Origin: Candidatus Adlerbacteria bacterium
GTDB lineage: Bacteria; Patescibacteriota; Minisyncoccia; Phycocordibacterales; SBAW01
Length of the DNA: 64,000 bases
NCBI GenBank assembly: GCA_963749085.1
Contig: CAVVLG010000003.1
Location: forward strand, 80,235 to 144,234
Direction of reading: 5' to 3'
Shown here: positions 1-56,088 of the stretch, in pieces
How the letters are laid out: each line of letters opens with the position of its first letter
Numbering within the stretch: the first letter of the stretch is position 1
Position numbers and translations under genes: made by a program
Notes under the pieces: generated by a model
Seen by the model: only the letters and a program-made list of their open reading frames with translations
The model's database searches: none
Told to the model about the DNA's origin: nothing

Positions 1-198
1 ATGTCTGCCTTAGAAAAGAGCAACGCGTTTGGCGTTTTCTCTATCTCTATCTCTCACCGCATCTTTACGTTCAAGATGTCTTGCTAGGTATGCATCCTTG
101 GCGGAAGCACTTACGCTCATCGCGTAACTTAATATAAATAGTACCATAGGGCTTCTGGAATGTGCAAGTGAATATAGGCGCGCCAGCACCCATATTGA

Positions 199-3146: not shown

Positions 3147-3198
3147 TTCTCAAACTAAAAACAGCAAGAGCAAATACTGTGTGCGTTAAAATTGCGTG

Positions 3199-3269
3199 TT
3201 GCGGGGCCGGGATTTGCACCCGGGTCCCAAGGTTATGAGCCTTGTGAGGTACTACTCCTCCACCCCGCG
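3199..3269 (-). tRNA. tRNA-Met (anticodon CAT), possibly initiator type
   Basis: Hand fold of the reverse complement: acceptor CGCGGGG/CCCCGC with a C1·A72 mismatch, D-stem GAGG/CCTC, anticodon stem CAAGG/CCTTG, loop CTCATAA, T-stem CCGGG/CCCGG; no encoded CCA. Confidence 0.7.
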
Positions 3270-21447: not shown

Positions 21448-24400
21448 TCAGCGGGCGCCTAGCAAACTCAATAGACCACTTAACCCATTCATGAATAGCT
21501 GAAATGGTGCCTCGATAACGGCGGCCATGAAGTTAGCCCCTCCGCCAGAGGCCTGGGACGTACTGGGATTCACAGTGATGGTTATCTGCGCGGTCGCCGA
21601 TCCTGCGCTGTTGATGGCGGTCATCGTGTAGGTCGTCGTCGTCGTGGGGCTGAAGTACGTGACGTTATAGCCGTAGGAAGCTGAATAATTGCCGACGCTG
21701 CCGATGCCATGATCGATAGAAATTGAGGTCGCATTGAGCACGTCCCAGGTGACCAGCACGGATTGTCCTGCCGCAATCGTGGCGTTGCCAGCGAAGTACA
21801 CAATGTAGGGCGTGGGGGGCATCACAACCGTAATTTGTGGACTAGTCGCCAAAACAGTACCGCTACAGTAAATGTTGCCATTTGCCAAAGTATATCCGCC
21901 TCGGCAGAGTTGCAATTGGTAGGTCCCGCCCATTGGCGGCATTGTTATAGTCATAACTGCCTGCCCAGAAGCATTCACACTCGCGGAAGAGACCGCCGGG
22001 GTAATAAACGCAGAACCAGCAGGCTCGGGGTATGGGGCTTCAACTCCGTTCGAGTTAACGACTAATATAACATCTCCCGATTGCTCATTCGGATCAACGA
22101 CAGTCGCGGTCACATAACCCTGAGGACCGACGCTTTGTGGAGACACGGAGACCGAGGGACTGGCCGGATTCACCGTCACGGTCGCAGTGGCAGTCACCGA
22201 GCCCGCGGAGTTAGTGGCGGTCAAGGTGTAGGTGGTGGTCACGGTGGGAGTGACTTGGAGGGAGGTGGCCGTGCCTTCATTGGTGCCGTTGATGAGGAAC
22301 GAGGTTGCGCCGGTGGCACTCCAGGAAAGCGTGGTGGAGTTGCCTGCCGTTATCGTGCTTGGGGAGGCGGAGAAGGAAGAGATGGTGGGGGCGCTTGGAG
22401 CGGGTGTCACCGTCACGGTCGCAGTGGCAGTCACCGAGCCCGCGGAGTTAGTGGCGGTCAAGGTGTAGGTGGTGGTCACGGTGGGAGTGACTTGGAGGGA
22501 GGTGGCCGTGCCTTCATTGGTGCCGTTGATGAGGAACGAGGTTGCGCCGGTGGCACTCCAGGAAAGCGTGGTGGAGTTGCCTGCCGTTATCGTGCTTGGG
22601 GAGGCGGAGAAGGAAGAGATGGTGGGGGCGCTTGGAGCGGGTGTCACCGTCACGGTCGCAGTGGCAGTCACCGAGCCCGCGGAGTTAGTGGCGGTCAAGG
22701 TGTAGGTGGTGGTCACGGTGGGAGTGACTTGGAGGGAGGTGGCCGTGCCTTCATTGGTGCCGTTGATGAGGAACGAGGTTGCGCCGGTGGCACTCCAGGA
22801 AAGCGTGGTGGAGTTGCCTGCCGTTATCGTGCTTGGGGAGGCGGAGAAGGAAGAGATGGTGGGGGCGCTTGGAGCGGGTGTCACCGTCACGGTCGCAGTG
22901 GCAGTCACCGAGCCCGCGGAGTTAGTGGCGGTCAAGGTGTAGGTGGTGGTCACGGTGGGAGTGACTTGGAGGGAGGTGGCCGTGCCTTCATTGGTGCCGT
23001 TGATGAGGAACGAGGTTGCGCCGGTGGCACTCCAGGAAAGCGTGGTGGAGTTGCCTGCCGTTATCGTGCTTGGGGAGGCGGAGAAGGAAGAGATGGTGGG
23101 GGCGGAGGTGGTGACACAGGTACCCCCCGAAAGTACGTAGCCAGCAGGACAGGCCACCGTCACGGTCGCAGTGGCAGTCACCGAGCCCGCGGAGTTAGTG
23201 GCGGTCAAGGTGTAGGTGGTGGTCACGGTGGGAGTGACTTGGAGGGAGGTGGCCGTGCCTTCATTGGTGCCGTTGATGAGGAACGAGGTTGCGCCGGTGG
23301 CACTCCAGGAAAGCGTGGTGGAGTTGCCTGCCGTTATCGTGCTTGGGGAGGCGGAGAAGGAAGAGATGGTGGGGGCGGAGATATTTGTAACGCTTACATT
23401 AGCCGTTGCCATGGGACTGGTTCCCTCTGGGCCGATACACTGCATGCCGGCGCTGTACGTTCCGGCGGAAGAAGGAGTTATGGAGAGCGAACCGCTCGTG
23501 GCATATGTACCGCCGTGGGAGCCGGTACAAGAGGTTGCGTTAGTCGAAGACCAAGTGAATGTAAATGAACTCCCCAGGGTGATGGAGGTCGGATTTGCCG
23601 AAACGCTCACGGTGGGTGCATTCGGGATAACAGGATTCACCGTCACGGTCGCAGTGGCAGTCACCGAGCCCGCGGAGTTAGTGGCGGTCAAGGTGTAGGT
23701 GGTGGTCACGGTGGGAGTGACTTGGAGGGAGGTGGCCGTGCCTTCATTGGTGCCGTTGATGAGGAACGAGGTTGCGCCGGTGGCACTCCAGGAAAGCGTG
23801 GTGGAGTTGCCTGCCGTTATCGTGCTTGGGGAGGCGGAGAAGGAAGAGATGGTGGGGGCGGAGGTGGTCGCGGAGGTGGTCTGCGAGGCGACACAGGTAC
23901 CGTTCAAAGGTACGGAGCTGGGAGAACAGGTCGTCGTCACAGGATTCACCGTCACGGTCGCAGTGGCAGTCACCGAGCCCGCGGAGTTAGTGGCGGTCAA
24001 GGTGTAGGTGGTGGTCACGGTGGGAGTGACTTGGAGGGAGGTGGCCGTGCCTTCATTGGTGCCGTTGATGAGGAACGAGGTTGCGCCGGTGGCACTCCAG
24101 GAAAGCGTGGTGGAGTTGCCTGCCGTTATCGTGCTTGGGGAGGCGGAGAAGGAAGAGATGGTGGGGGCGCTTGGAGCGGGTGTCACCGTCACGGTCGCAG
24201 TGGCAGTCACCGAGCCCGCGGAGTTAGTGGCGGTCAAGGTGTAGGTGGTGGTCACGGTGGGAGTGACTTGGAGGGAGGTGGCCGTGCCTTCATTGGTGCC
24301 GTTGATGAGGAACGAGGTTGCGCCGGTGGCACTCCAGGAAAGCGTGGTGGAGTTGCCTGCCGTTATCGTGCTTGGGGAGGCGGAGAAGGAAGAGATGGTG

Positions 24401-24716
24401 GGGGCGGAGGTGGTTTGTGTAAGTGTTTGCTTACTACCCGAACATGACATTGTCGCACGAGTAGCAGGACCGACGAAGCCATACCCAGTAGTATCAGGAG
24501 AACCTGAGGAGACAATGCCGTGAGATGCCTGGTAGTTTTGTATTGCCTGTTCGGTCAGAGGACCGAAGTAGCCGGTGGTGGGACTTATGCTTAAAAATGA
24601 TTGCAGTTGGGTGACTTCCCCATTAGTTGTCGCATCAGTGACTCCGGCATACAGGTTATACGACAGGTCGATGCAGGAAGGGGCAGATGCGGTGGAGACA
24701 CTAGAACCAGTCTCAA
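21448..24716 (-). pseudogene. C-terminal portion of an IS-disrupted giant cell-surface protein (PG-binding-like segment + 10 Ig-like repeats + C-terminal domain)
   Basis: The reading frame is open from the stop just inside the IS left IR; the first ATG (MSCSGSK) lies at 24450 with no signal peptide; a 'LQSFLSISPTTGYFGPLTEQAIQNYQASHG' PG_binding_1-like segment is encoded upstream of that ATG; 9 identical plus 1 variant 79-aa repeats 'APTISSFSASPSTITAGNSTTLSWSATGATSFLINGT...TYTLTATNSAGSVTATATVTV'. Confidence 0.7.
22170..24410 (-). repeat. tandem 237-bp coding repeats (at least 9 nucleotide-identical copies)
   Basis: Three alternative-frame ORFs (22232, 22469, 22706) translate to identical 78-aa strings, and five more (22943, 23216, 23699, 24008, 24245) share the same 53-residue N-terminus and sit on the same 237-nt register, so the unit is repeated with perfect or near-perfect nucleotide identity. 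Confidence 0.9.
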
Positions 24717-28147: not shown

Positions 28148-28259
28148 CGAAAATGCGGCCACCATGCCGCTCTTTTCGTTCAACTTTTTGTGCTGAGCAT
28201 TGCGGGTCGCACTGACACATCGACATTGCGGGAACACGCCGATACAAAGTTGTCAATGC

Positions 28260-28345
28260 GGAGAGGGTGAGATTCGAACTCACGGTAGGGTTTCCCCCAC
28301 GCCGCATTTCGAGTGCGGTGCCTTCGACCACTCAGCCACCTCTCC
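28260..28345 (-). tRNA. tRNA-Ser (anticodon CGA)
   Basis: Class II tRNA fold by hand: acceptor GGAGAGG/CCTCTCC, anticodon loop CUCGAAA, long variable arm, T-arm GAGTTCGAATCTC; 3' end faces the recombinase gene. Confidence 0.75.
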
Positions 28346-28428: not shown

Positions 28429-28501
28429 GCGCGGTTAGCTCAGTTGGTAGAGCATCCCCTTGACGTGGGGAGGGTCGCAGGTTCGAGTCCTGCACCGCGC
28501 A
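28429..28501 (+). tRNA. tRNA-Val (anticodon GAC)
   Basis: Acceptor GCGCGGT/ACCGCGC, D-arm TAGCTCAGTTGGTAGAGCA, anticodon loop TTGACGT, T-arm GCAGGTTCGAGTCCTGC. Confidence 0.8.
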
Positions 28502-28504
28502 CTA

Positions 28505-33012: not shown

Positions 33013-33085
33013 GCTTGGGTAGCTCAGTTGGTAGAGCATCTCCCTGAAGAGGAGGGGGTCGCCGGTTCGAGCCCGGCCCCAAGCA
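33013..33085 (+). tRNA. tRNA-Phe (anticodon GAA)
   Basis: Acceptor GCTTGGG/CCCAAGC, D-arm TAGCTCAGTTGGTAGAGCA, anticodon loop CTGAAGA, T-arm GCCGGTTCGAGCCCGGC. Confidence 0.85.
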
Positions 33086-33095
33086 CACCGTCTAG

Positions 33096-36565: not shown

Positions 36566-39500
36566 CTATTTGGTGCCAGGTGTCGATGCACTCATTTGAG
36601 AGGAAAATAGGTTTGAATTGTAGGTGTTGATGGCTTTTACAGCCGCAGCAAAACTAGGATCAGCCAAGTTAGCACCAGTGGTATTCGCATAATTGATAAC
36701 TGCGCCAGAAAGTTGGCTAATATTACTACCTCCAGAACCAGAGGAAGGATTGGGGGAAGAACCTACGAAGCTTTGGAATTGGGAAATGACGTTACCAATA
36801 AAGCCAAGACTAAACGGTGACGCTTTGTATAGAACGGCATCGGTAGCCCCGGCATAGGCACCAAATGCGGGCACAACGTTGCCGACCGGTAATGCCGATT
36901 TAAGTTTAAATTTGCCGTCTTGCCAAGTCAGAGGCGCTTCGGACGAATAGCTTGCACCCACACCTGCGGCAGCTCCTGCTGAGACTTGGAAGTAAAGGCC
37001 CGCAGGATCCAATGACCCATTGGGGTCATACGTGCCTGAAACACGAGCACCTATGCCAGGCCCTATTGTGGGACCGTAACTGAATTGTCCTAGCCAAGAA
37101 TTTGTATCAATATCAAAGTTCGCTACCCCTCCGCCAAATATATACCCGGCATTTATGCTTCCCTCAAGAACACCGAGCCCTTGCGGATCACTAGTCGTTG
37201 TAGGATTATCCCTACTATAACTATACGCATTCAGCTGTTGTGGATCTGCTAGTAACTGATATTGGCTCTGGTCTAGAAGCTGCCCAACTTGATTTGGATT
37301 GCCGAGAGACAAAAATACAGGATCTTCCGAAAGGAACTGCCCCCTACTCCCGTCATAGTACCTCGCGTTCAGATAATCGAGACCAGTGTCATTGTCATAC
37401 ACCTGACCCACATACTTGCGCAGTGATGAGTAGCCCGCTAATTGGTCGTGGTTGCTAATGGATCCGTAGGGGGTGTAGTCGGTGACCTCCTGCACGTGGT
37501 TGTTAGAATCTGCGGTGACAGAGGCGGAGTTGAGTGTGTCGACGTAGTTGTAGTTGATAATCCCGCTTCCCGTAGCGCCGGTTATGTCAGCAACATCTTG
37601 ATTATTAAGGAAGATGTGCTTGGTGGGGAGCATTGAGACACTGTCGGTATTATAGTAGTCGTTGGGATAATAATAGGTGGTGCTTGCGGTGCCCACTCTT
37701 ACCCGATTGTCATTCTCATCGTAAGTGTAGGTGTCAGTGCCTGCCGTCGTGGTTGAGATGCTGAGGCGGTTGCGCCAATCCCAAGCACCTTGGAAGCCCG
37801 AGAGTCCTTGAGTGACGTTACCATTATTATCATACGTAATGGTGGTCTGGCCTACCTGCGTAGGGGCGTCTGGGTTGGCATAGCTAGAGCCTGTATTGCC
37901 TTGGTAGAGGTAGGTAGTAGTGGCGAATGTCCCGCCGAGTGTGGAGGAGGCGTCGGTGAGTACGTTACCTAAGGCGTCATAGGTCCACTGCTCGATTGTG
38001 TTGCGGCCAGCATTGGGCGCACCAGAGGAGATGTCAGGAGTAGTAGATGCCTGTATGAGTCTATTAAGACCATCGTAGGTGTAATCGACCACTTTGGCAG
38101 TTTTAGTGAAGGACGCATCGACAAGGTATGTGATATTTCCATTGGCATCATAAGTATAGGAGAGATCCTGTACACGGTTTCCCGGAGTCATGAAATAGTC
38201 GTTACCGTTGGACCAGGGAGACGGATTGTTATTTTGATCCCAGACTCTAATGCGCCAGAAATATTTGTTGGCATCGGTTCCGTTCGAAGGCAGCGTAGGT
38301 CCTGCATACGTTGATGTCGCCGTTCTTTGACCATTTTGCGTTTGCGGCGACAGAGTTACTTCGCCCGAATCCCATAAAGGAGTTGCCCAACTTCCTCCTC
38401 TTTGGATTACCTGAATTTCATAGGCTGAAGCTGTTGATGTGCCGGACGAATCATAGATGCCATTGAAGTACGGAGGAGGTGCCGTAACTTTGGTGTTTTG
38501 CTCCGCAAAGAAGTGGAAATTGTCGAACCACACATGACCGGTCGTTGTCCCTAGATCGAAATCGAAACGTCCATCTACATCTCCCGCATTTGGCGTAAGC
38601 GTAATTACGTAGTGATTCCAATTGGGATATAGATTGAAAGGGGTGAAGGGTGTAAATTGATTGTTAGGAGAGTGATTTTGATCGAGAACAACATCCGCAC
38701 TCCTTTGAGAGGTTGATTTGGCATCAAAGGCTAGTATGTACGTGGTACCAGTCGCCAGTGCCTGCTGTTGCCAAAACTGCACGTACCAATTTGTACTGGT
38801 AGCCTGGAGAACATTTATATTCGCCGAACAGCTCCCGTTGGTCGATGTAGTGCAATCCGTGCTTTCAGTCGCCTCCGAAGAGCCGTTATCTGTCCAGAAA
38901 CCATAGCCATAGTTGTTTCCTGTGGGATCGGAGATATTTTCAAACGATGGATTACGCACTGTAGAAAGACTATCAGGAATAAGTTCGACATCATCCAGCC
39001 AATACGTTGCACTATTAACCGCCCCGAGCGAAAATATCAGTCGTGAGTTTAGGTCAGTCGTCGTCGCGGTCGAGCTAAAGTAGTACGAGTACTGTTTCCA
39101 GTTTGGCGTGACGGTAGGGTTCACGTCGAGCCCGTAGCTTAGATATTGCCCGCTATTTTGCTGTAACGTTGCTTCGATAGTCGTCGTGGCCGATGCTTTT
39201 GCGCTGAATTCCAAAGTGTAATTGACGTTGGGATCGACGCGAAGCAGCTGTAGGAGTTGTGGTAAATAGTTGACACTTGTCGAAGCAACAACAATTTTAT
39301 CTGAGCAGGCACCAGTGAAGGCAGTTGTGCAGTCGATAGAACTGCTTGAAATACTTGAACCTTCATTAAACACCCAACTTGTGGAAGAGGCGTACTCAAA
39401 TGAGTCGTCGTAGGTTACCGAATTTGAGAACCAATAACCATCGGTATTGAGATTTGTTGAAGCAAATGGAGGAGTGGGGCCTGTTGAGGATGCGGCGTTG

Positions 39501-42500
39501 GCAAAAGTTTGCGTGATAAAGCCCATGGCATTGCCTACCGCAGTGCCCCAAGCTCCCGAATCTGGGAGGAGTGTCACTTTGTGCGTTAATCGATACAGGT
39601 GGTTCGCATCATAGGTATCGGTAGTAGTAGCACCACTGCCCCACAAAATGGTAGCCTCCTGGCCGAGCGGAGAGTAAAAAACATTTGAGACAACCGTACG
39701 CCATGGCGATGACGTTGCCTCGCGCTGCTGTATTTCTTGAACCAACCCTTGAGGACCTAGCGTGTATAACACCTCGGACTGGTCGGGATATACGATGTCG
39801 GTCTGATCGCCCTGTCGGTCGTAGGAATATGACGTGGTGTATGTTTGTCCCGCAATCTGTTTTACTTCTTGTGCAGGCTTCCCCAGAGGATTGTAGCTGT
39901 CGGTCGTTACAATAGTTGCATTCGCAGTTGTGGTTGCGATACAAATCAAGCCTATACCGTTTGAACAAGAATCATACTTATACGTTACCGAGTTTGCGCT
40001 GGCGGGCATGTAAGTAATTACGATGATACCCTGACCTCCCGTGCCCGCAGCACCGCCTACGTGCGTTGCCCCGCCTCCGCCTCCTCCACCTCCGCCTCCG
40101 CCGTACGTGCCGCCGTTTCCACCCGCTGAGCCGACTGCATCTCCTGTCGCGGACGCACCGCCGCCTCCGCCTCCGCTCGAACCATGAGACGCATCAAATT
40201 CTGTTCCGATGCCGCCAGCACACCCGACTGTTGCTGGAGTATTGTTTTGCCCCCCACCTCCACCACCGCCATTGGTACCGGCGGTGCATCCGGAACCACT
40301 GTCACCATTGCCGTGTCCTGTTCCGCTTGAATTGTTTCCGCCATTTGCTCCGTTACCTGTGCCTCCAGTACCATTCCCCGCCGTACCGCCGCCATTACCT
40401 CCTCCACCCGGCCCGGCCCCGCCAGTAGTATTTGCGCCTCCTTGCGCTCCCGCTCCGTTGGACCCTCCAGCACCGCCTCCCGCAGTTGGAGCCGCATGAG
40501 CGGCATACGTACCACCGGCTCCCCCCGCATATGTTGTCGAGCCTATAGACTGCGAAGTTAGACCTCCTACGCCAGAGGAGGTAGTACCGTTCCCCGCACG
40601 CCCCCATGAGCATGACAAAGAAGCGGTCGAGGAGGCGGTGCCGTTGAAATACGTTTCTCGAGCTTGCCCGACGGCAGTTGTCACTGACGTGGTTGTAGCA
40701 TCAGCTCCAATTGCGTAGGTTATGTTCCCTCCTGGCGTGAGAGATAGATTAGTGATCTTTGCATAGGCACCTCCACCTCCTGCGGCTCCACCCGCGCCTC
40801 CGTCGGCGACGCCTGCCGCGCCTTCGCCTCCTGATCCAACGCACTGGATAGTGTTGTTCGACGAGTTCCAGTTTGAGGGTACGTTCCAGGTCTGATTGCC
40901 TTTACCCGGATTAACGGTGAGGAAGATGACGGTGGCACCGCTTCCTCCGGTTCCTTCGGTCAACTCGCGATTGAGCGCATCATAAGTGTAGGTAGTTGTT
41001 TTGCCGTTGGGGTCAACTTTTTGCGTCACGTTGCCCGCAAGGTCATAGGTATAGGTCGTCGTGCCAAAAGTAGTGTCCGTCGCGACGTGAAGGTCCTGTG
41101 CCGTGAGTTGGCGATTGAGACCGTCATACGTGAAATTGCGGATATTGCCGCTGGCATCCGTCACTTCCGTGAGGTTATTTTTCAGATCGTATGCATATGT
41201 GGTCGTAGCGGACGTGGTGGTGGTGCTATGTTCAACCACATTGACCAGATTGCCGAACGCGTCATTCCAAAAATCCTTAAGATTGCCGTTAGGGTCCGTG
41301 ACCATGGTATGCCACGGATTATACACATAGGTTGTCGAACCGACCGCGTTATCGACGGAAGCGATTCTCTCCAATGGATCGTAGGTATAGCTGGTAAAGA
41401 GCGCGGTCGTTGTCGTAGGTGCCGCCCAAGACGTGCTTGAGGCAAAATATTGGAGGGATTCATCCACCAGCAAGCCGGAAGCACCGTACACATCATCTTT
41501 CACGGCATAGGTATTGGTTGGAGCCGCCTCCGTGCGCGTTTGTATGGTGCGGCCGAGACCATCAAAGTATTGGTATGAGACCGTGCTGGTTGCGGAGTTG
41601 AGATAGGAGGTCGTCGTGGTGTAAGTCGGGAAACCCGTGTCGGTATATGCGATAGTTGTATTCAAGTCAAGTGTGCTGGGCGTATTGAGGTCAGGCTGCA
41701 ACTTCTCACTAACGCGCCCGACCGGATCGTACACGGTGACATGCGTGAGCCCGTTGGGATCGGTCGTGGTCGCCACATTGCCAGTCCCATAATCGTACAT
41801 ATAACTAGTGGATTGGTTGAGCGCATTGGTCGAAGTGGCAGGGTAATAATTGAAACTGTCGAATGAATAGCTGGTTTGATTACCGTTAGGGTCAGTGCTG
41901 CTCGCCACAAGGCCGTAGGAGTTATATGACTTCGTCTTGCTCGCATAGGTACTTCCTGTAATCCAATCCTCCTCCTTAGTCTGATTTCCGAGTGATACAG
42001 ACCCCAGCGGTAGGCCGTCGTAGTAATACTGGGTTTCTGAAAGCTGAGTGCTACTCGCATTGGTAAGTATAATGTCGTCTTGCAGATCCAGCGTCGAGCT
42101 TGCATTGGTCGCATAGGTAATATTTTTGATGCTCTCATCATTGCTGCTGATAGTGGTGTACGTGCCATTGGAGCTGCCGTTTACTTGACCCAGATCCTCA
42201 ACCTGCGCGAGATCCCCTGTAGTGGTGGAGTACGTGTATTGAATGGCATGATCCATGTGATTGCTACCGCTGGGATCAAAATCCTGCGTCATTTGGTTAG
42301 CGAGAAAGACGAAATACCCGGTAGACGCGGTGGTTGAGGGAGTGGTGGTGGACGTAGTCCAGTCGTAGAAGGTGCGCTTCAGCAGCGTCCCGCTGGGAGT
42401 TTCGGTGTCTTCACGGAACACACGCCCAATTTGGGCATAGCTATCGCTCTGCTCGCCGTCGCCGGTCGTTACGCCGTTGCCTTGGTTGTAATAGGTGACC

Positions 42501-45172
42501 GTGGTGAAGTCGGGATGTGTCTCCTTTATAGTGTAGAAGCTTGCGAACTTCCTGTCCTGCGGAGCGTTCGCGTTGAAGTACAGAACGCCGCCATTGTAGG
42601 AATAATCGACTTCGGTGGTATTGTCGTCGTTATCACTGGTGAGGGTTTTTGACACCAATAGAAGCGAGAGTGGCAAATTGGGATTATTGCTCGTCTGGGG
42701 CGACGGAACATATGAGATCTGCTCGTTACCACCTTTGGGATAATTAATTTGCGTCAGTACGTCCTGGCGCGAAGCGTTGTTTATTTCATCGACATTGTCC
42801 GGCAACCCATCGCCGTTCCAATCGACATATTCGTTATCTATCTCAGTATCATACTGATTGTATTGAACGATGTAGGAAGGAAGCTGTATTGAACTCGTGG
42901 CCCACCCCGAGCCGGTATTAAGCCACACAATATCGATCCCATTCGAGACCGGCGCATTGCCGTGCACTCCACCGACAATCGGACTGTAATATGATTCGAC
43001 GAGATCCGGCAATCCATCGCCAGTGAGGTCTATAAACCGAAGACCGCGATCAAAGTATTGATGGCTGCCGCTGTTGTAATAATAGGTGGACGTGGCGATG
43101 TTCCAAGGCGAATTGCACGATCCCGCCGGGATCCATCCGGTCCCAGTATTCATACAGACATACGTATTGTTAGCATCCGAATACACCCAATCATCAAGGC
43201 CGTCGCCGTTGATATCAACGAGCTGGGAGTCCGTAACCGTACCACCAGCCGCGTCTGGAAACGGTTCCACTGCCGTAAAATCACCACTGGGGGTCCATGC
43301 GCTGCCGTTGCCCATATAGCTTGTACTCGCCGTAATACCTGAACCTGAAGGCAATGCTTCGACATAACCAGGGTATCCGTTCCCATCGAGATTTCCAAAC
43401 ATACCCGATGTGTAGGTTATGCCCGAGCCGGAATTGTAAAGGCCGAAGGGAGGGATGACCCCGTTTAACGTCGAAGAGGCGAGCACCGTAAAGGTGTAAT
43501 CGCCGTTAGTTCCTGACGTATTTTCGTATAGTGCCGCGCCATCCAGACCCTGATCATTATGCACGACATCCGCATAGCCGTCGCCGCTGACATCAACGAA
43601 TCTCGTGCCGCTTTCAACCGGAGTCTGCGTGCTACCAAGACAGGCCCACGTGTACGAAGGAGGCTCGCTGACGGCCGTGTTGTCTATATATAACTGCCCA
43701 GGACCTCCGCAGGAAGCATAGCCGGATATTGCCGTATCGTTTACGCCATCGCCATGCGATTGGGCTGCGATGTTAGATTGGTTTGCAGCATATCCAAAAT
43801 TATTTTGAAACGTCCATGTCACTGATGTGCTGGCATACTGGAACGTCGTCGCCGGAAGAGTCAGTTGGTTACCGTTGGCATCCTCGCCAGTTTCTTGGAC
43901 GCCAGAGAGAAGCGACCGATACCCATTATTTCCCGTCGTATATGAAAGAACATATTTGCGCACTAAATTGCCATTCACCTTTGCGTCAATCTCTGTGATG
44001 CGATAATTGGTTGTCACTTCAAAGGTCGGCCGGTAATCGATGAACGAGTCGGGACGGGTTGAAGTAGCAAACGTTATACTCATCACGCCCGTGGTTGTTC
44101 CGTTTCCGGTATACGTTATCTGGAAAGGATAAATCTGATCGTCGTTCTTGGCGTAGGTGTATGAGATGTCATTGCCGTTCGTATCCACAACCTGTTCAAG
44201 CATCCAGGTATATATCTGCGTTGAGCTGGCGGCATCAAACTGCTGTGCTTGGGTCGTGGTGCCGTATTCGTAGCGGGTGCCATCCTTGTCATAGGCGGTC
44301 CACGTGTCGTTTGAGAATACGTATTTGACGAAGCTGCCGTCATTGACACGCGCGATATACGTGCTCGAGTTGGAGGATGTGGCTAAAAGGGTTAATTCTC
44401 CGTCTTTAGAGGAGGTAAAATAGTTGTCCGTATAGAGCCTATCAGTACCCGTTTTATTAAGCCTCTGTATGTAGGGGATGGAGAGCGACCAGCCGTATCC
44501 AACCAGACTGTTGTCTTGCAGGTTTTGGCTGTTGTAATTGAGGGAGAAATCGGGCTGTAAGCCGTTGCGGCCGGGCGGAATATCGAGCGGTATGTTTTCC
44601 GTCAACGCGCCGCTCGTCTTGTCCACTTGAGGAGCAATAGTTTGATATGTGAATAGATATGGATTCGTAACTGTCGGTGGAGAACTACCACCGCTAGGAG
44701 GTGGAGGACCCGGAGGTTGGCTTGCTGGAGTGCTGGGAGTCGTTGGGCTGCTAGGGGCGGGCGTCGTTGGGTTACTCGGATTACTACCATTATTCGTATC
44801 ACTGTTATCAGTAGAGCTATTGTCGGTAGGACTTGTATCCACACTGGGCGTCGTGGCGTTATCCGCGCTGGGCGTCGCCTGATCGGATGAATCGCTCGGT
44901 TGTTGCGTCGATGCTCCTAATATATCGCCCAGTGGGGTGACTTTCGGCGTATCGGGCGTAGTATTTGCATCTGTCGATTGATCCGAGGACTGTGAAGAAT
45001 CAAAAGTTGCGGAAGCGTCAGTACCTGAGGAGGTGGAGCTCGGGTCCGTTATTGATGTCTGTGCATCCGCTGAAGGAGTGTCAGTCGCGCTCTGGGCAAA
45101 TATAGTGCTCACCGGAGAGAGCAATAAAGTTGCAAGCGTAAAGCCTGCGATAAGTTTTCTCACCGCCCACAT
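36566..45172 (-). CDS. giant Rhs/YD-repeat polymorphic toxin, TcB-TcC-fusion-like (SpvB + FG-GAP propeller + YD shell with Gly-rich insert, 2 CBM4_9-like and an FN3-like module + C-terminal toxin)
   Basis: Signal peptide 'MWAVRKLIAGFTLATLLLSPVSTIFA|QSA'; SpvB-type 'DFSLNYNSQNLQDNSLVGYGWSLSIP'; FG-GAP 'DVSGDGYADVV/DINGDGLDDWV/DLTGDGLPDLV'; many YD repeats (e.g. 'TYTYDLAGNVTQKVDPNGKTTTYTYDALNRE'); Rhs core end 'ARYYDGSRGQFLSEDP...NAYSYSRDNPTTTSDPQGL'. Confidence 0.85.
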   Translation of the reverse strand: MWAVRKLIAGFTLATLLLSPVSTIFAQSATDTPSADAQTSITDPSSTSSGTDASATFDSSQSSDQSTDANTTPDTPKVTPLGDILGASTQQPSDSSDQATPSADNATTPSVDTSPTDNSSTDNSDTNNGSNPSNPTTPAPSSPTTPSTPASQPPGPPPPSGGSSPPTVTNPYLFTYQTIAPQVDKTSGALTENIPLDIPPGRNGLQPDFSLNYNSQNLQDNSLVGYGWSLSIPYIQRLNKTGTDRLYTDNYFTSSKDGELTLLATSSNSSTYIARVNDGSFVKYVFSNDTWTAYDKDGTRYEYGTTTQAQQFDAASSTQIYTWMLEQVVDTNGNDISYTYAKNDDQIYPFQITYTGNGTTTGVMSITFATSTRPDSFIDYRPTFEVTTNYRITEIDAKVNGNLVRKYVLSYTTGNNGYRSLLSGVQETGEDANGNQLTLPATTFQYASTSVTWTFQNNFGYAANQSNIAAQSHGDGVNDTAISGYASCGGPGQLYIDNTAVSEPPSYTWACLGSTQTPVESGTRFVDVSGDGYADVVHNDQGLDGAALYENTSGTNGDYTFTVLASSTLNGVIPPFGLYNSGSGITYTSGMFGNLDGNGYPGYVEALPSGSGITASTSYMGNGSAWTPSGDFTAVEPFPDAAGGTVTDSQLVDINGDGLDDWVYSDANNTYVCMNTGTGWIPAGSCNSPWNIATSTYYYNSGSHQYFDRGLRFIDLTGDGLPDLVESYYSPIVGGVHGNAPVSNGIDIVWLNTGSGWATSSIQLPSYIVQYNQYDTEIDNEYVDWNGDGLPDNVDEINNASRQDVLTQINYPKGGNEQISYVPSPQTSNNPNLPLSLLLVSKTLTSDNDDNTTEVDYSYNGGVLYFNANAPQDRKFASFYTIKETHPDFTTVTYYNQGNGVTTGDGEQSDSYAQIGRVFREDTETPSGTLLKRTFYDWTTSTTTPSTTASTGYFVFLANQMTQDFDPSGSNHMDHAIQYTYSTTTGDLAQVEDLGQVNGSSNGTYTTISSNDESIKNITYATNASSTLDLQDDIILTNASSTQLSETQYYYDGLPLGSVSLGNQTKEEDWITGSTYASKTKSYNSYGLVASSTDPNGNQTSYSFDSFNYYPATSTNALNQSTSYMYDYGTGNVATTTDPNGLTHVTVYDPVGRVSEKLQPDLNTPSTLDLNTTIAYTDTGFPTYTTTTSYLNSATSTVSYQYFDGLGRTIQTRTEAAPTNTYAVKDDVYGASGLLVDESLQYFASSTSWAAPTTTTALFTSYTYDPLERIASVDNAVGSTTYVYNPWHTMVTDPNGNLKDFWNDAFGNLVNVVEHSTTTTSATTTYAYDLKNNLTEVTDASGNIRNFTYDGLNRQLTAQDLHVATDTTFGTTTYTYDLAGNVTQKVDPNGKTTTYTYDALNRELTEGTGGSGATVIFLTVNPGKGNQTWNVPSNWNSSNNTIQCVGSGGEGAAGVADGGAGGAAGGGGAYAKITNLSLTPGGNITYAIGADATTTSVTTAVGQARETYFNGTASSTASLSCSWGRAGNGTTSSGVGGLTSQSIGSTTYAGGAGGTYAAHAAPTAGGGAGGSNGAGAQGGANTTGGAGPGGGGNGGGTAGNGTGGTGNGANGGNNSSGTGHGNGDSGSGCTAGTNGGGGGGGQNNTPATVGCAGGIGTEFDASHGSSGGGGGGASATGDAVGSAGGNGGTYGGGGGGGGGGGATHVGGAAGTGGQGIIVITYMPASANSVTYKYDSCSNGIGLICIATTTANATIVTTDSYNPLGKPAQEVKQIAGQTYTTSYSYDRQGDQTDIVYPDQSEVLYTLGPQGLVQEIQQREATSSPWRTVVSNVFYSPLGQEATILWGSGATTTDTYDANHLYRLTHKVTLLPDSGAWGTAVGNAMGFITQTFANAASSTGPTPPFASTNLNTDGYWFSNSVTYDDSFEYASSTSWVFNEGSSISSSSIDCTTAFTGACSDKIVVASTSVNYLPQLLQLLRVDPNVNYTLEFSAKASATTTIEATLQQNSGQYLSYGLDVNPTVTPNWKQYSYYFSSTATTTDLNSRLIFSLGAVNSATYWLDDVELIPDSLSTVRNPSFENISDPTGNNYGYGFWTDNGSSEATESTDCTTSTNGSCSANINVLQATSTNWYVQFWQQQALATGTTYILAFDAKSTSQRSADVVLDQNHSPNNQFTPFTPFNLYPNWNHYVITLTPNAGDVDGRFDFDLGTTTGHVWFDNFHFFAEQNTKVTAPPPYFNGIYDSSGTSTASAYEIQVIQRGGSWATPLWDSGEVTLSPQTQNGQRTATSTYAGPTLPSNGTDANKYFWRIRVWDQNNNPSPWSNGNDYFMTPGNRVQDLSYTYDANGNITYLVDASFTKTAKVVDYTYDGLNRLIQASTTPDISSGAPNAGRNTIEQWTYDALGNVLTDASSTLGGTFATTTYLYQGNTGSSYANPDAPTQVGQTTITYDNNGNVTQGLSGFQGAWDWRNRLSISTTTAGTDTYTYDENDNRVRVGTASTTYYYPNDYYNTDSVSMLPTKHIFLNNQDVADITGATGSGIINYNYVDTLNSASVTADSNNHVQEVTDYTPYGSISNHDQLAGYSSLRKYVGQVYDNDTGLDYLNARYYDGSRGQFLSEDPVFLSLGNPNQVGQLLDQSQYQLLADPQQLNAYSYSRDNPTTTSDPQGLGVLEGSINAGYIFGGGVANFDIDTNSWLGQFSYGPTIGPGIGARVSGTYDPNGSLDPAGLYFQVSAGAAAGVGASYSSEAPLTWQDGKFKLKSALPVGNVVPAFGAYAGATDAVLYKASPFSLGFIGNVISQFQSFVGSSPNPSSGSGGSNISQLSGAVINYANTTGANLADPSFAAAVKAINTYNSNLFSSQMSASTPGTK

Positions 45173-45585
45173 TTTTCTTTCCCACAAAAAATGAGGTGCC
45201 CTGCTCATAAAATTTTGCCCTGCCAAAAAACATATACCGGAGACCCAATGGTAACAGGGAAAACGAAACAGCAAGGAAATCTCTCCGGATTTTTATTTCA
45301 CCACTGAACTATTTTCCTGTTATTAAGCCACACATGAGACTAGGTGCGCAAATCTCGGCAAAGCGACATATGAAGTTTTTATGCAAACAAGTTTTCATAT
45401 CTCGGATTTCCGAACAGAGCAAAATAATAGTGCTTGATAATTTTCAAATCTGACGCGTTTATTAAAAAATTATCCACAGATCGCTATTACAAGTTACCAA
45501 CTAGGGGACCGGAATGGGGTCTGGACTCACAGCGGGTGTTGCGTCATTCATTGACCTTGCAGATTAGCAAGTAACCACAAGGTAT

Positions 45586-46923
45586 ATGAATATGACGTTT
45601 GAGGGTACCGCAGGGGTATTAGGGACAAAGCCGGAAATTAAGGAGACAGTGCGGGTGTGCTACTGCCTGTATGCTCGGAAGTCGACCGAACAAGACGAGG
45701 TGCAAGCGCTCTCTATCGAGTCGCAGGTCAAGGAGATGACTGCGCTCGCCACGCGGGACGGCTTGGAGATCGTTGAAATAAAACGGGAGTCGCACTCGGC
45801 GAAGGAGACCAATCAGCGGCCAGTCTTCAACGAGATGCTCGAGGAGATACGAGTGGGTACATATAATGGAATACTGACATGGGCAGCGGATCGCATCAGC
45901 AGAAACGCCGGGGACTTGGGCAAGGTCGTAGACCTCATGGATGCAGGGCTGCTCCATGGCATACAAACGTACAGTCAGAAATTCTCGAATAATCCGAACG
46001 AGAAATTCTTGTTGATGATCCTGTGCAGCCAGGCGAAGCTCGAAAACGACAACAAGCGGATTAACGTAAAGAGGGGCCTGCGCGCTCGGGCGGAGATGGG
46101 TATGCTGCCGGGATGGGCACCCATTGGATATCTCAACGACACGCGCAAGGACCACAGGTGCGAATATCTGTTGGACCCGCTTCGAGCGCCGGTGGTGAGG
46201 ATGATATTCGAGAAGGTTGCCAAAGAACGCTGGAGCGGGCTTAAGATATACCACTGGCTCAAGGAGGATCTAAAATTCACGACCCGCAGCGGTAAGAACC
46301 TCAATATCAGCACCCTCTATGAGATGTTGAAAAATCCCTTCTACTGCGGAGTGTTCGAGTACCCCCGCAAGAGCGGCAATTGGTACGTGGGCAAGCATGA
46401 GCCCCTCATCACAAGAGAGCTGTTTGAGCAGGTGCGGCAGAAAATCGTCGAGGAGACGGAGCCGCGTAAGCGCTCCAACGAATTCGCCTTTGTCCGCATG
46501 ATGACGTGTGGGGACTGCGGCTCCAGCATCACGGCATTCGAGAAGGATAAATTCATCAAGGGAACTGGGGAGACGCGCACGTACCGCTATTATGCGTGCT
46601 GTCGGTCGAAGGACCGCCATTGCAAGAGCCTCTATGTACGCGAGGACGCTATGATGGAGCAGCTCATCGGCATCATCGACGAGGTGGAAATAGACCAGCT
46701 GGGTGCCCGGCATCTTATCGACAGAGAGATTGTTCGCTTCAACAAACTACAGTCGAAGGTACTTGGCAGCAAGGAAAAAGAGAAGGTGCGCGACATAGAC
46801 GTGCGGCGCTACGCGAAGTACCTGCTTGAGGAAGGGACGACTGAAGAGAAGCGCGAGCTGCTCGGACAGCTGCGCGGCAGGATTGTGCTGAAGGATAAAC
46901 AGATATCAATCGCGAAGGCCTAG
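45586..46923 (+). CDS. large serine recombinase (copy 2, paralog of 26816..28147)
   Basis: 445 aa with the same three-domain layout; Zn ribbon 'CGDCGS...YYACCRSKDRHCKSLY'; colinear with copy 1 and judged by eye about 60% identical. Confidence 0.85.
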   Translation: MNMTFEGTAGVLGTKPEIKETVRVCYCLYARKSTEQDEVQALSIESQVKEMTALATRDGLEIVEIKRESHSAKETNQRPVFNEMLEEIRVGTYNGILTWAADRISRNAGDLGKVVDLMDAGLLHGIQTYSQKFSNNPNEKFLLMILCSQAKLENDNKRINVKRGLRARAEMGMLPGWAPIGYLNDTRKDHRCEYLLDPLRAPVVRMIFEKVAKERWSGLKIYHWLKEDLKFTTRSGKNLNISTLYEMLKNPFYCGVFEYPRKSGNWYVGKHEPLITRELFEQVRQKIVEETEPRKRSNEFAFVRMMTCGDCGSSITAFEKDKFIKGTGETRTYRYYACCRSKDRHCKSLYVREDAMMEQLIGIIDEVEIDQLGARHLIDREIVRFNKLQSKVLGSKEKEKVRDIDVRRYAKYLLEEGTTEEKRELLGQLRGRIVLKDKQISIAKA

Positions 46924-46983
46924 ACAAACGCAAAAGCCGCGACCTGATATCGCGGCTTATGCGTTTCTTACGAGCTTAACGAG

Positions 46984-47051
46984 GGGCGATACCGTACTGA
47001 CTTCGATGGGGGCCGGTATCGGTTCCCTGCGCCACAGCGCTGTGCCCCCGG
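46984..47051 (+). repeat. 68-bp direct repeat, copy B
   Basis: Identical to 33441..33508; starts 61 bp after the recombinase stop. Confidence 0.85.
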
Positions 47052-47140
47052 CAGGAATTGCACCCACATTGACCCCTTAGGACGGGGCGGTTCTATCTGT
47101 TGAACTACGGGGGCTATAAACGCCACCACTGTAGCACACG

Positions 47141-47383
47141 TTACGCTTCTACTCCCAATTTATTAGCAAGTTTCTCGCGGTCAAAACCGATCATGATGTC
47201 GCCGCCGACCACAATGACGGGTACGCCGAGCTGACCCGTTAGTTTTATCATCTCTTGTCGTTTTGCTGCGTCGCTTGCGACGTCGTAGGCGGTATACTCG
47301 ATATGTTTTTCGGCGAAAAATTCCTTCGCCATTTGGCAGAAGTGGCAGGTCGGCGTCGAATAAATGGTTATGTGCTTGTCCAT
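47141..47383 (-). CDS. glutaredoxin-like protein (NrdH/YruB type)
   Basis: 'IYSTPTCHFCQMAKEFF' CxxC thioredoxin-fold motif and 'GQLGVPVIVVGG' typical of glutaredoxins; 80 aa. Confidence 0.8.
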   Translation of the reverse strand: MDKHITIYSTPTCHFCQMAKEFFAEKHIEYTAYDVASDAAKRQEMIKLTGQLGVPVIVVGGDIMIGFDREKLANKLGVEA

Positions 47384-47446
47384 ACAAATAATAAGTGATT
47401 GGCTGCTAGTAAAAACAGTATATCAAATATATAATCGACTCGCCAC

Positions 47447-47517
47447 GCGGATATGGTTTAGTGGTAGAACAGATGCTTCCCAAGCATCGGGCGGGAGTTC
47501 GATTCTCCCTATCCGCA
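47447..47517 (+). tRNA. tRNA-Gly (anticodon CCC)
   Basis: Acceptor GCGGATA/TATCCGC, D-arm TGGTTTAGTGGTAGAACA, anticodon loop TTCCCAA, T-arm GGGAGTTCGATTCTCCC. Confidence 0.8.
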
Positions 47518-47575
47518 CATGTTAGTGAGACCGACCTACCAGGCTCAAAGTGCTCAAATATGCTATGATAATTTT

Positions 47576-52785: not shown

Positions 52786-55152
52786 TTACTCCGAAACGGG
52801 AGCGGTCGTACTGTTCTGCGGTGTGGACGTCACCGGGGGTTTCGCCCCGGTAAAGGGCGGCTTGCCCGTCTCTAGATTGCCCAAAATAAGCTCTACCTGG
52901 GAGTTGCCGGGGTTGGATTGGTTCAGAGCCTGGAACAGTTGTATCGCAGTCGCCGTATTACCCAGCGCGTAATCCGCGAGTCCGAGGAAATACTGCGCGT
53001 TGGCGTAGTTGGGCACTATGTCAATCGCCTGCTGAAGCGCTTGCGCTGCCGGGGACATATCACCGGCCGAGTAATAGAGGAGCCCGAGTTCGAACCATAT
53101 CGGACCCACCCCGGGAGCGGTTTGTGCGGCGGCAGTGGCTGCCCTTATCGCGCTTTGGATGTCGTTATTGGCTACATCAAGCTGCACCACGAGAAGAATA
53201 GCGTCGGTGTAATTCGGTTTGAGCGTCAGGGCTTCCGAAAGATCGCTGGTCGTCTTTGCTTGGTCGCCGGCGGCGGCTTCAAGCCGCGCCTCTGCCAAGG
53301 GTATCGCCGGGTTGGTCGGATCCTGCGCTGCGGCAGCTTGATAGGTCGTCAATGCGGTTTGCGAAGCCCCTTGGACATTAAGTGTTGATAAGTAGTCATA
53401 CACCTCAGCAAGTGCAAGCGTCGGACGGTAGTCATGGGGATTAAGCGCCTCTGCTTTTTGTGCGGCCACAATGGCAGCTTCTACCGTTGTCGCGAACTCT
53501 TGCTGGAGCGTTGCCGCGGGCGTTGAAGTCTCGGCGGCTATCTGCTGGAGCTTGGTCGTATCGGCTTGGACCAAGAGCCTGAGCGCATCGCCCGTAGTAT
53601 CGAACTGTTGCGCGCGGGTCGCATCTGCTATAGCCTCATCCGCCGTGCCGTTTGAGAGTACGTCGGTCCCTTTCCCGACGTACGCTTCCGCGACGAGTCT
53701 TCGTCCGCTCGCCACACTCACCCACAGTGAAAGCACCACGAGCACCACTGCTATACCGGCGGTATATACCTGCCAGAGGCGCGATTCCTCCCCTACTTCA
53801 ACGCTGCTTTGACCTTGTCTCCAGAGGAAGCCGAACGTGGCACCCGCAAGCATGAATCCCAAAAGTATGATGTTTTGACTCGGCACGTAGAAGAGAATGG
53901 CACACCACAGATAGAGGCTTGCGATGCCGAGCGTCACTGCCACTATTCTATCCTCGCGATTGAGAACCCCGAGGCGGGTGACCCTGATAAGCGCGGCGAG
54001 TATCAGGAATAGAGGTATAAGCCAGGCTATGACGCCGAGGAGTCCAACTGAGCCGAGCGCCGTTATGATGGTGGAAAAGCCGACATTGAAATCAAGATCC
54101 CAAAATTCCGACTGGTTGACCGCTGACGGACGCAGGAGATCCCATTCCTCGCCGAATGTGTTTGGTCCCGTGCCCACCAGGACACGTGAGAAGGAATTTC
54201 CGCGCGCCGTATCTATCATGGAGAGCGTTGTGGCATAGGAGGGTCGCACCTCAAGGGAGGAAACGGGAAAGAGAGTGGTTAAATTCGTATTGACGGTAGA
54301 GCCGAAGAATAGAAACAGGACTGACACAACGGCCGCCACTATCGAAAACCAGGGGGCCCTTCTAGTCCAGGTCTCCCTAAGAGATGCGGGGGGGTCGGTT
54401 TCTTGAATACTTCGCTCACTCAGTATGCGCACTGTGCCGAGAATAACGGAGAACCCAAGGATAAGCCCCCATACGAGCGGGAAGTTTATGATGCCGAGGA
54501 GTATCGCGAGAATGAGGCATGCGACGCCGGCAACCACGCGCCACAAAATGGACACCGTCATAAGCTCAACCTGCGCCAAAAAGAGCATGACGAGAAGTCC
54601 TACAATAAGGCCGAGATCGTTCCATTTGCCGACCAGGTTTACCGAGCGGTCGGCAAAGCTCGCGAACGGAATAGCCGCCGAACCAAAGACAATAGAGACG
54701 CACTGAAAGAGCGCTGCCGCTATAAGCGCCCAGAAGAGGACCGTAAGCAGGAGTCGGACACCCCGCAGCGTTCGGAAGAGCGCGAAGGCGAGCAGAAACG
54801 CCAAAAATAGGAACACAGCGAATAGCACCGTGTCGGGATCAATGCCAAAACCCGTGAGTGCCACGCTTCTATCTATGGAGAAGAACCACGAGATGAGGTA
54901 CGCGAGTGGAAGGAGCGCAACTAAAAGCGCTCCGTACAACCCGCGCGAGCGGATAAATTCTCGCATGCCGCCTCCCCACGCGAACAAGACCAGCGCGAAA
55001 AGGAGAAACACCGCGAACACCGTGACCTTTAATAATTGGAACGGAAACCATGCGGTCGGGACGACCAGTACCAAGGCAAGCACCATGCCTGCGAGGTAGA
55101 GGTATCGCGACCACGAGAGTAGCCTCGAATACATATTCGATTCGATTAACAA
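52786..55152 (-). CDS. O-antigen ligase (Wzy_C)-like polytopic membrane protein fused to C-terminal TPR repeats
   Basis: About 12 TM helices with a large periplasmic loop in the Wzy_C region; C-terminal third is Ala-rich TPR ('AQYFLGLADYALGNTATAIQLFQALN'). Confidence 0.65.
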   Translation of the reverse strand: MLIESNMYSRLLSWSRYLYLAGMVLALVLVVPTAWFPFQLLKVTVFAVFLLFALVLFAWGGGMREFIRSRGLYGALLVALLPLAYLISWFFSIDRSVALTGFGIDPDTVLFAVFLFLAFLLAFALFRTLRGVRLLLTVLFWALIAAALFQCVSIVFGSAAIPFASFADRSVNLVGKWNDLGLIVGLLVMLFLAQVELMTVSILWRVVAGVACLILAILLGIINFPLVWGLILGFSVILGTVRILSERSIQETDPPASLRETWTRRAPWFSIVAAVVSVLFLFFGSTVNTNLTTLFPVSSLEVRPSYATTLSMIDTARGNSFSRVLVGTGPNTFGEEWDLLRPSAVNQSEFWDLDFNVGFSTIITALGSVGLLGVIAWLIPLFLILAALIRVTRLGVLNREDRIVAVTLGIASLYLWCAILFYVPSQNIILLGFMLAGATFGFLWRQGQSSVEVGEESRLWQVYTAGIAVVLVVLSLWVSVASGRRLVAEAYVGKGTDVLSNGTADEAIADATRAQQFDTTGDALRLLVQADTTKLQQIAAETSTPAATLQQEFATTVEAAIVAAQKAEALNPHDYRPTLALAEVYDYLSTLNVQGASQTALTTYQAAAAQDPTNPAIPLAEARLEAAAGDQAKTTSDLSEALTLKPNYTDAILLVVQLDVANNDIQSAIRAATAAAQTAPGVGPIWFELGLLYYSAGDMSPAAQALQQAIDIVPNYANAQYFLGLADYALGNTATAIQLFQALNQSNPGNSQVELILGNLETGKPPFTGAKPPVTSTPQNSTTAPVSE

Positions 55153-55247
55153 TTAATCGACTGCTATATAAAGGGGCGACTAACCCCCTGTTGTAGACCA
55201 GCCACATATAAGTATAGAACGATAATTTCTACCTGAAGCCACACCTG

Positions 55248-55287
55248 TGGAAAAGCAAATCCCCGCCTTTAGGGCAGGGATTCACAT
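55248..55287 (-). terminator. intrinsic terminator of rnpB
   Basis: CCCUGCC-CUAAAG-GCGGGG hairpin followed by AUUUGCUUUU. Confidence 0.55.
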
Positions 55288-55578
55288 CTAGCGCGCGCGT
55301 CTGTAAGCCGAATTCTGTCGTGAGCAGCAATTTATCTGGGACCTCGGTCGCCCGAAGCCTCAAGCGGCACCCTCCATTTCTGGAGTACGGCCTTGCACCT
55401 GGGTAAGGATTTTGCCGTTTCACCTCCACTCAAGGAGCTCGTCTCTGTTCGCACCTCTCGTGCCCGCCAGGAGCACGCGGCAGGGGTTACCTGCTACCTG
55501 TTATCGGCTTGCGCCGGATAAGTGTTCGGACTTTCCTCCCCTGCTCTTTCAAGCGGGGCTGCCACTCAACGCGCTGGG
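55288..55578 (-). ncRNA. rnpB: RNase P RNA (bacterial type A, compact)
   Basis: Minus-strand RNA carries CR-I 'GGAGGAAAGUCCGAAC', CR-II-like 'GGUGAAACGGC', CR-IV-like 'UGCAAGGCCGUA' and CR-V 'CACGACAGAAUUCGGCUUA'; the P4 strands co-vary (CCGAA/UUCGG versus E. coli CCGGG/CCCGG); P1 'CCAGCGCGU'/'ACGCGCGCG'; upstream TATACT -10 box. Confidence 0.8.
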
Positions 55579-55593
55579 GGACAGTATAGCACA

Positions 55594-56088
55594 CTACTGC
55601 CCAACGTGCAGGATATCTCCTGTGGCGATGTCATGTTGCGCCGCAAATCCCGCAGGGACTTCGAGCACGTAGAGAACCGGCTGCAATGGGTAGAAAACCT
55701 CAGGAGGATTGAGGAGGTACGTCGAAGGTGAGAGATCGCTGTCTATGGTGACGATTGTACCGTCTTGTACGGCAAAGAGCATGTCCAGAGAAAAACTCAT
55801 ATCCTTCATCCAAAAACCCGGTACGGTCGGTGAATCGAATACGAATAACATGCCGTGACCGGGCTGCAGTGAGCTGCGGCCGGAGAGTCCCTGCTCGCGT
55901 TCGGCCTCAGTGCTTGCAACTTCGGCAATCATAGTCGTCGTGCCTATAGTGACCGTGGTCGTTGGCAGGCCGGGGTTGGGCATAGTTTGAGGTGTAGGCC
56001 GGTATAACAGAAAAGAGGCGGCAAGTGCCAGCAAAAATAAAAGCAATACGCCGATACCCAACGTTCGTATATCCACTCTTATTGCCAC
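55594..56088 (-). CDS. DUF192 family protein
   Basis: 'GLSGRSSLQPGHGMLFVFDSPTVPGFWMKDMSFSLDMLF' DUF192/COG1430 core; a GTG start at 56088 avoids a 97-nt overlap that the ATG at 56175 would create. Confidence 0.55.
   Translation of the reverse strand: MAIRVDIRTLGIGVLLLFLLALAASFLLYRPTPQTMPNPGLPTTTVTIGTTTMIAEVASTEAEREQGLSGRSSLQPGHGMLFVFDSPTVPGFWMKDMSFSLDMLFAVQDGTIVTIDSDLSPSTYLLNPPEVFYPLQPVLYVLEVPAGFAAQHDIATGDILHVGQ

Follow-up and report, generated by a model that had tools for sequence, protein, structure and literature searches.

The 64-kb window analysed here, from a Candidatus Adlerbacteria bacterium, carries a genuine bacterial RNase P RNA gene (rnpB) on the minus strand at positions 55577-55288. 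We establish the identity, secondary structure, conservation and transcription signals of this RNA. The evidence supports a bacterial type A ancestry, with shortening by loss of peripheral helices in a reduced-genome CPR organism, and a conserved hairpin between P5 and P7 is a gain over type A. Taken as a whole, the locus is very probably an RNase P RNA gene of reduced type A form, with its own promoter and terminator, that works as RNase P usually does.

Results

A full-length RNase P RNA scores just below the Rfam cutoff

A permissive scan of positions 55000-55900 with RF00010, the bacterial class A model, yields a 290-nt match at 55577-55288 on the minus strand (94.7 bits, E = 2e-29) that aligns end to end, over model positions 1-367. 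The whole-window Rfam scan at gathering thresholds returned six tRNAs and no RNase P, because 94.7 bits is less than the RF00010 gathering score of 100 bits, which is an annotation cutoff and no biological criterion. By gathering score the RNA thus falls outside RF00010, and the E-value, the full coverage of the model and the covariation described below identify this as a threshold miss and not a false signal. A sequence-only reading of the window had placed an RNase P RNA here and named an Rfam match above threshold as its check: the full-length match was obtained, the score above threshold was not. That reading had also put the length at about 290 nt, shorter than typical type A RNAs, which is the span of the Rfam match.

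The five conserved regions, CR-I to CR-V, all lie on the minus strand in canonical order. The blocks that the sequence-only reading had cited as CR-I (GGAGGAAAGTCCGAAC) and CR-V (CACGACAGAATTCGGCTTA) are found at 55539-55524 and 55322-55304, and a script search of the 64-kb window found each of them once, on the minus strand only. The CR-II-like and CR-IV-like blocks it had mentioned were both located on the same strand. The elements are as follows, where RNA position 1 is window position 55577 and all elements are on the minus strand.

55583..55591 (-): extended -10 element TGCTATACT, with TATACT at 55588-55583 preceded by TGC
55524..55539 (-): CR-I, GGAGGAAAGUCCGAAC; includes the P4 5' strand (RNA 45-53 = 55533-55525), with bulged U48 at 55530
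55503..55519 (-): extra hairpin at the P5.1 position, between P5 and P7 (RNA 59-75); stem CGGC/GCCG, GCAA loop, extendable by AU/AU with one bulged C; tail AAC-A
55402..55498 (-): specificity domain, P7-P12 with CR-II and CR-III; helices backed by covariation, P11 pairing excepted
55448-55442 (-): CR-II, ACAGAGA (RNA 130-136)
55424-55418 (-): CR-III, GGUGAAA (DNA GGTGAAA; RNA 154-160)
55366..55392 (-): 27-nt arm formed by P15 (GGC/GCC), L15 and a P16-like hairpin
55371-55369 (-): 3' side of L15, GGU (RNA 207-209), in an internal loop
55340..55359 (-): P18 (RNA 219-238), 8 bp with a GCGA (GNRA) tetraloop
55304..55339 (-): CR-IV, CCAGAUAAAU, with the P2 3' strand (RNA 248-256) and CR-V
55322-55304 (-): CR-V, CACGACAGAAUUCGGCUUA; holds the P4 3' strand (RNA 266-273 = 55312-55305)
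55251..55283 (-): intrinsic terminator, GAAUCCCUGCC-CUAAA-GGCGGGGAUUU, then GCUUUU
RNA 4-10 / 277-283 (-): P1
RNA 11-19 / 248-256 (-): P2, pseudoknotted with P4
RNA 20-40 (-): P3, GAAA loop
RNA 45-47, 49-53 / 266-273 (-): P4, U48 bulged
RNA 54-58 / 178-182 (-): P5
RNA 80-82 / 174-176 (-): P7, 3 bp
RNA 84-98 (-): P8
RNA 101-119 (-): P9, 7 bp with a pentaloop
RNA 121-124 / 170-173 (-): P10
RNA 141-154 (-): shortened P12, 4 bp with a UUGAGU loop
RNA 186-188 / 210-212 (-): P15, covarying
RNA 193-206 (-): P16-like hairpin inside P15, 5 bp with a GAAA loop, covarying

Covariation supports a reduced type A fold

Alignment A1 (n = 15) combines the window RNA and 14 homologues of like architecture from Saccharibacteria and Paceibacterota. 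On this alignment RNAalifold recovers P1, P3, P4, P5, P8, P9, P10, P12, P15, the P16-like hairpin and P18, with compensatory changes in 43 of the 64 predicted pairs. The curated structure adds P2 (pseudoknotted with P4), P7 and P11 to this set, and 50 of its 73 pairs are altered on both sides in A1. Standard pairs fill 91.6% of its cells, versus 35-43% once the 3' partners are displaced by 1-3 columns; its covariation score is 0.624, versus 0.09-0.13; and none of 500 shuffles attained the observed values. Pairs changed on both sides occur in each of P1, P2, P3, P5, P7-P10, P12 and P15, which includes the P1 pairing already proposed from the sequence, and all 8 pairs of P18 show such changes. 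P11 drawn as UGC/GCA was not supported (8 of 15 and 13 of 15 paired, zero covariation in A1).

Against the 43 model positions of the P13/P14 block the window RNA has 4 nt in the Rfam alignment, and against the 43 of the P15-P17 block it has 18 nt. The RNA has neither P13, P14, P17 nor the P6 pseudoknot, which is left without its 3' partner when P17 is missing; P12 persists as a 4-bp stub and P18 is kept. The loss of peripheral helices that the earlier reading had compared to reduced genomes is therefore real. Its list of helices to look for, P12, P13/P14 and P18, divides into P13/P14, which are indeed absent, P12, which is shortened and not gone, and P18, which is present with all of its pairs covarying.

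The strands of P4, AAG-U-CCGAA and UUCGGCUU, form 8 pairs around a bulged U. All cells (100%) are paired in the 15 sequences of A1, six of the pairs being invariant and two covarying between AU and GC. The CCGAA/UUCGG state of the window RNA corresponds to a change of the two distal pairs from G-C to A-U. Across the 120 compact RNAs among the matches listed, the two variable positions read GA/UC (59), GG/CC (39), AA/UU (12), AG/CU (5), GA/UU (3) and GG/UC (2), so that they can pair in 120 of 120, with five wobble states and no A.C mismatch. AA/UU is the norm of the class, found in 55 of the 63 members collected. The double compensatory change noticed in the sequence is accordingly true covariation, borne out both in A1 and in the 120 compact RNAs. 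It is also ordinary: CCGAA/UUCGG belongs to routine natural variation and does not set the window RNA apart.

A class-wide hairpin at the P5.1 position

In all 15 sequences of A1, the stretch that separates the 5' strand of P5 from that of P7 forms a hairpin of at least 4 bp, which the sequence-only reading had not mentioned. We collected 63 unique class members, namely the A1-type RNAs among the matches listed together with metagenome hits, and the hairpin is present in 63 of 63, followed by an A-rich tail. Its median z against shuffles is -4.6 and its stem sequences are unrelated among class members. It sits where type B RNAs carry P5.1, a likeness by position.

In type B RNAs, P5.1 helps to replace the brace made by P6, P16 and P17. 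The hairpin between P5 and P7, together with a P16 that is often capped by a GNRA loop, may likewise stand in structurally for the missing P6/P17 brace. Among the 63 members, the two hairpins show little tendency to carry GNRA loops together (both in 10, one only in 14 and 6, neither in 33), and a link between them was discarded as weak.

An independent transcription unit at a conserved locus

The extended -10 element begins right after the TAG stop codon (55596-55594) of the upstream DUF192 gene. It contains the TATACT box that had been read from the sequence as a plain -10 box, and a TGnTAnnnT-type box stands about 6-10 nt before P1 in most of the 14 relatives. No -35 element is recognisable upstream of the RNA, which is why a generic sigma-70 scan for -35/-10 pairs came back empty.

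Downstream, the terminator hairpin (55283-55257) comprises 11 pairs, of which two are G.U; UUUGCUUUU comes after it. A generic terminator scan did not pick it up, because greedy stem extension leaves only four U in the tail. The earlier description of a clean intrinsic terminator holds nonetheless, and a strong hairpin with a U-tract lies 10-25 nt after P1 in 14 of 14 relatives. Since the extended -10 and the terminator are both conserved in relatives, the gene is an independent promoter-to-terminator unit of about 327 nt. In E. coli the terminator of M1 RNA is trimmed off to give the mature RNA, and by analogy the window transcript may be trimmed in the same manner. Another terminator-like hairpin was observed at 55176-55205 (-), after the RNase P terminator but before the gene for a TPR protein starts.

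At a minimum length of 60 aa, three mechanical ORFs overlap the RNA, as had been reported: 55229-55429 (-), 55412-55672 (+) and 55522-55731 (+), with lengths of 66-86 aa. Five do so when the limit is lowered to at least 40 aa. A search for Pfam matches to the overlapping ORFs returned none. The gene would, as predicted, be missed by ORF-only annotation, and the curated Rfam cutoff misses it as well.

The RNA occupies the gap between the DUF192 gene and a gene for a TPR membrane protein. The gene order DUF192, RNA, TPR membrane protein, MurJ, LepA is common to the window and to two Saccharibacteria MAGs (L026 and L042), in which LepA is 79% and MurJ 58-63% identical to the window proteins, so the RNA stands at an orthologous locus. 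Species-representative genomes were scanned for CR-I and CR-V at compact spacing, which gave at least 120 loci; the best matches to the window RNA among the matches listed come from Candidatus Saccharibacteria MAGs (L026, L042 and L003). Compact type A RNAs are not rare, and comparable spacing occurs among the matches listed in Nitrosomonadaceae, Flavobacteriaceae, Bacteriovoracaceae and others. The 15 class RNAs score 86.6-140.5 bits on RF00010, with four below 100 (window, 94.7; L015, 89.7; L107, 89.1; L077, 86.6 bits) and the other eleven at 109-140.

Several other loci deserve mention on their own account. A Patescibacteria MAG RNA (L002:7664-7963, -) has the specificity-domain signature of the class and AA/UU in P4, lacks the hairpin of the P5-P7 joint and has two additional hairpins at the P13/P14 site. 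It scores 162 bits on RF00010 and is an apparent intermediate form. In a Candidatus Shapirobacteria MAG, the RNA at L052:1081-1356 (-) is best matched by the archaeal model RF00373 (118.9 bits, cutoff 84) and by none of the bacterial models; the L110 RNA resembles it by eye. A Saccharibacteria locus (L022:6393-6643, +) matches the group I intron model RF00028 with 58 bits.

Predicted function and substrate binding

The locus is very probably a single-copy gene that supplies the RNase P of a CPR bacterium with its catalytic RNA subunit, probably transcribed from its own extended -10 promoter and stopping at its own intrinsic terminator. The catalytic core is whole, with P1-P5, the P4 pseudoknot and its bulged U, J5/15 (GCAAG), P15/L15, P18, CR-I, CR-IV and CR-V, and the T-loop-recognition module of P7-P11 with CR-II and CR-III seems to have been kept. 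Judging from the retention of these parts, the RNA should cut the 5' leader off pre-tRNAs, as expected of any bacterial RNase P. Its partner, the RnpA protein, is presumably encoded elsewhere in the genome; a tblastn search within the window gave no match, with approximate E. coli and B. subtilis queries that make a weak probe.

The window holds six tRNA genes (3198-3269, 28258-28345, 28429-28502, 33013-33086, 47042-47114 and 47447-47518), and none of the six encodes the 3'-CCA; in each the discriminator is followed by a C and then by other bases. GGU, the canonical CCA-binding motif, is present in L15 of the window RNA only, 1 of the 63 class members collected. In 30 of these members the three nucleotides 5' of the P15 3' strand read AGA, and in 24 they read AGU.

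Other features of the window

Elsewhere in the window, 21448-24450 (-) encodes a 1000-aa Thr/Ser-rich protein with near-identical tandem repeats of about 90 aa. These repeats account for the local GC content of 0.62 and GC skew of 0.32, and the long ORFs on the opposite strand are mirror artefacts of them. A 2902-aa RHS/YD-repeat-like protein with a glycine-rich insert is encoded at 36566-45274 (-); it is adjoined by a recombinase-like ORF at 45586-46923 (+), both labels coming from a reading of the translations, and by a tRNA-Arg/tRNA-Gly pair at 47042-47518. The region 36566-47518 could be a mobile or toxin-delivery region. At 60898-63985 (-), inspection of the translations points to genes for putative subunits of a haem-copper oxidase (cyo-type) and to one resembling haem O synthase.

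Discussion

Alternative explanations

The locus might be a decaying rnpB remnant, with tRNA 5' processing carried out by a HARP-type protein-only RNase P or by another copy of the RNA. The sub-threshold Rfam score and the loss of several helices would fit such a pseudogene, and the genome was examined within the 64-kb window only. Yet all universally conserved core blocks are intact, the architecture is kept across Saccharibacteria and Paceibacterota with abundant compensatory changes, which implies purifying selection on structure, and the promoter, the terminator and the synteny are conserved; nor was a PIN-type or HARP-like ORF seen next to the RNA. We therefore regard decay as highly unlikely. 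The same substitutions among relatives, paired and compensatory and not codon-like, weigh against the idea that the region codes for protein, with one of the overlapping ORFs being real and the RNase P-like blocks coincidental. Three ORFs of 66-86 aa do overlap the RNA, but none has a Pfam match and the RNA model reaches E = 2e-29, which makes this reading extremely improbable.

Instead of deriving from type A, the RNA could also be a member of some other structural class, be it type B, type C or archaeal-like. The hairpin at the P5.1 position and the absence of P6 and P17 are both type B traits (PMC7191817), and the L052 RNA shows that a CPR RNase P RNA can score best with the archaeal model. 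On the other hand, the best clan match of the window RNA is RF00010, class A; it is without P10.1, P15.1 and P15.2; its P15 internal loop with the P16 hairpin, and its P18, are placed as in type A; and L002, L020 and other such relatives form a gradation towards classical type A. There is thus very little chance that another class is the correct assignment, and a reduced type A RNase P RNA remains the preferred explanation.

Significance

RNase P RNA serves as a marker of genome completeness. The class straddles the Rfam cutoff, with 4 of the 15 RNAs examined below 100 bits, and many Saccharibacteria and Paceibacterota genomes would therefore seem to be missing an essential gene as long as thresholds stay as they are and no model of the class is built. 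The class also provides a natural experiment on the degree of trimming and renewed bracing that the type A scaffold tolerates. In this respect the hairpin at the P5.1 position is a concrete and testable candidate for a structural substitution, a modest structural question. Current understanding is not overturned, since the basic phenomenon has been published.

The hairpin is possibly the sole detail that has so far gone undescribed: the literature searched, in which older RNase P work is thinly covered, gave no description of it or of the subclass. A broader reading is tentative, and we think it rather unlikely to hold in full. It supposes that Saccharibacteria and Paceibacterota share a coherent, undescribed subtype that lost the P6 pseudoknot, P17, P13 and P14 and is braced by the hairpin between P5 and P7 with an often GNRA-capped P16. 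This would be a further independent convergence on the P5.1 solution of type B, and it would go together with a degenerate CCA-binding site in a lineage without tRNA-encoded CCA.

Comparison with known RNase P RNAs

The window RNA is a further example of a published phenomenon, sub-threshold RNase P RNAs having already been reported from the CPR. In ten of 35 circular CPR genomes, an RNase P RNA came to light only at relaxed Rfam thresholds (Lui, Nielsen & Arkin 2021, PLoS Comput Biol, PMC8172020). Many CPR RNase P RNAs were found to lack P13, P14, P16 and P17, and the CCA-binding GGU/UGG motif was lost in 23 of the 35 genomes, about two-thirds (PMC8172020). The window RNA resembles those RNAs in being derived from RF00010, in scoring below Rfam cutoffs and in having lost peripheral helices; unlike them, it keeps a P16-like hairpin, P12, P18 and GGU in L15. 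The hairpin between P5 and P7, the class-wide AA/UU in P4 and the specificity-domain signature used here are not mentioned in that study.

Classical type A RNAs have P6, P16 and P17 and are without P5.1, P10.1, P15.1 and P15.2, with a mean length of 374 nt (PMC7191817). With type A as represented by E. coli M1 RNA, Thermotoga maritima and RF00010, the window RNA shares CR-I to CR-V, the helices P1-P5 and P7-P12, the P4 pseudoknot and its bulged U, an internal loop in P15 that holds GGU, and P18 closed by a GNRA loop. It differs in being about 85 nt shorter, in the absence of P13, P14, P17 and P6, in the P12 stub, in the hairpin in J5/7 and in the distal P4 pairs, which are A-U where type A usually has G-C. 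Of the strict type A combination of P6, P16 and P17 (PMC7191817), only a 5-bp P16-like hairpin is present.

Like type B RNAs (Bacillus; RNaseP_bact_b), the window RNA is without P6/P17 and P13/P14 and has a hairpin at the P5.1 position, whereas its L15 forms an internal loop instead of a hairpin loop, and the best model is class A. From the type B set of P5.1, P10.1, P15.1 and P15.2 it has the P5.1-position hairpin only, and from the type C (Chloroflexi) set of P6, P16 and P17 with P10.1 and P15.2 it is without P6, P17, P10.1 and P15.2. Without P10.1, P15.1 and P15.2 it is neither type B nor type C, and is thus a derivative of type A in which one trait resembles type B. A naturally minimal bacterial example is the RNase P RNA of Mycoplasma fermentans (cited in PMC8172020). 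The two are alike in having reduced their peripheral helices and kept the core, in a small-genome bacterium, but the Mycoplasma RNA is of type B and has no P12, whereas the window RNA derives from type A and keeps a short P12.
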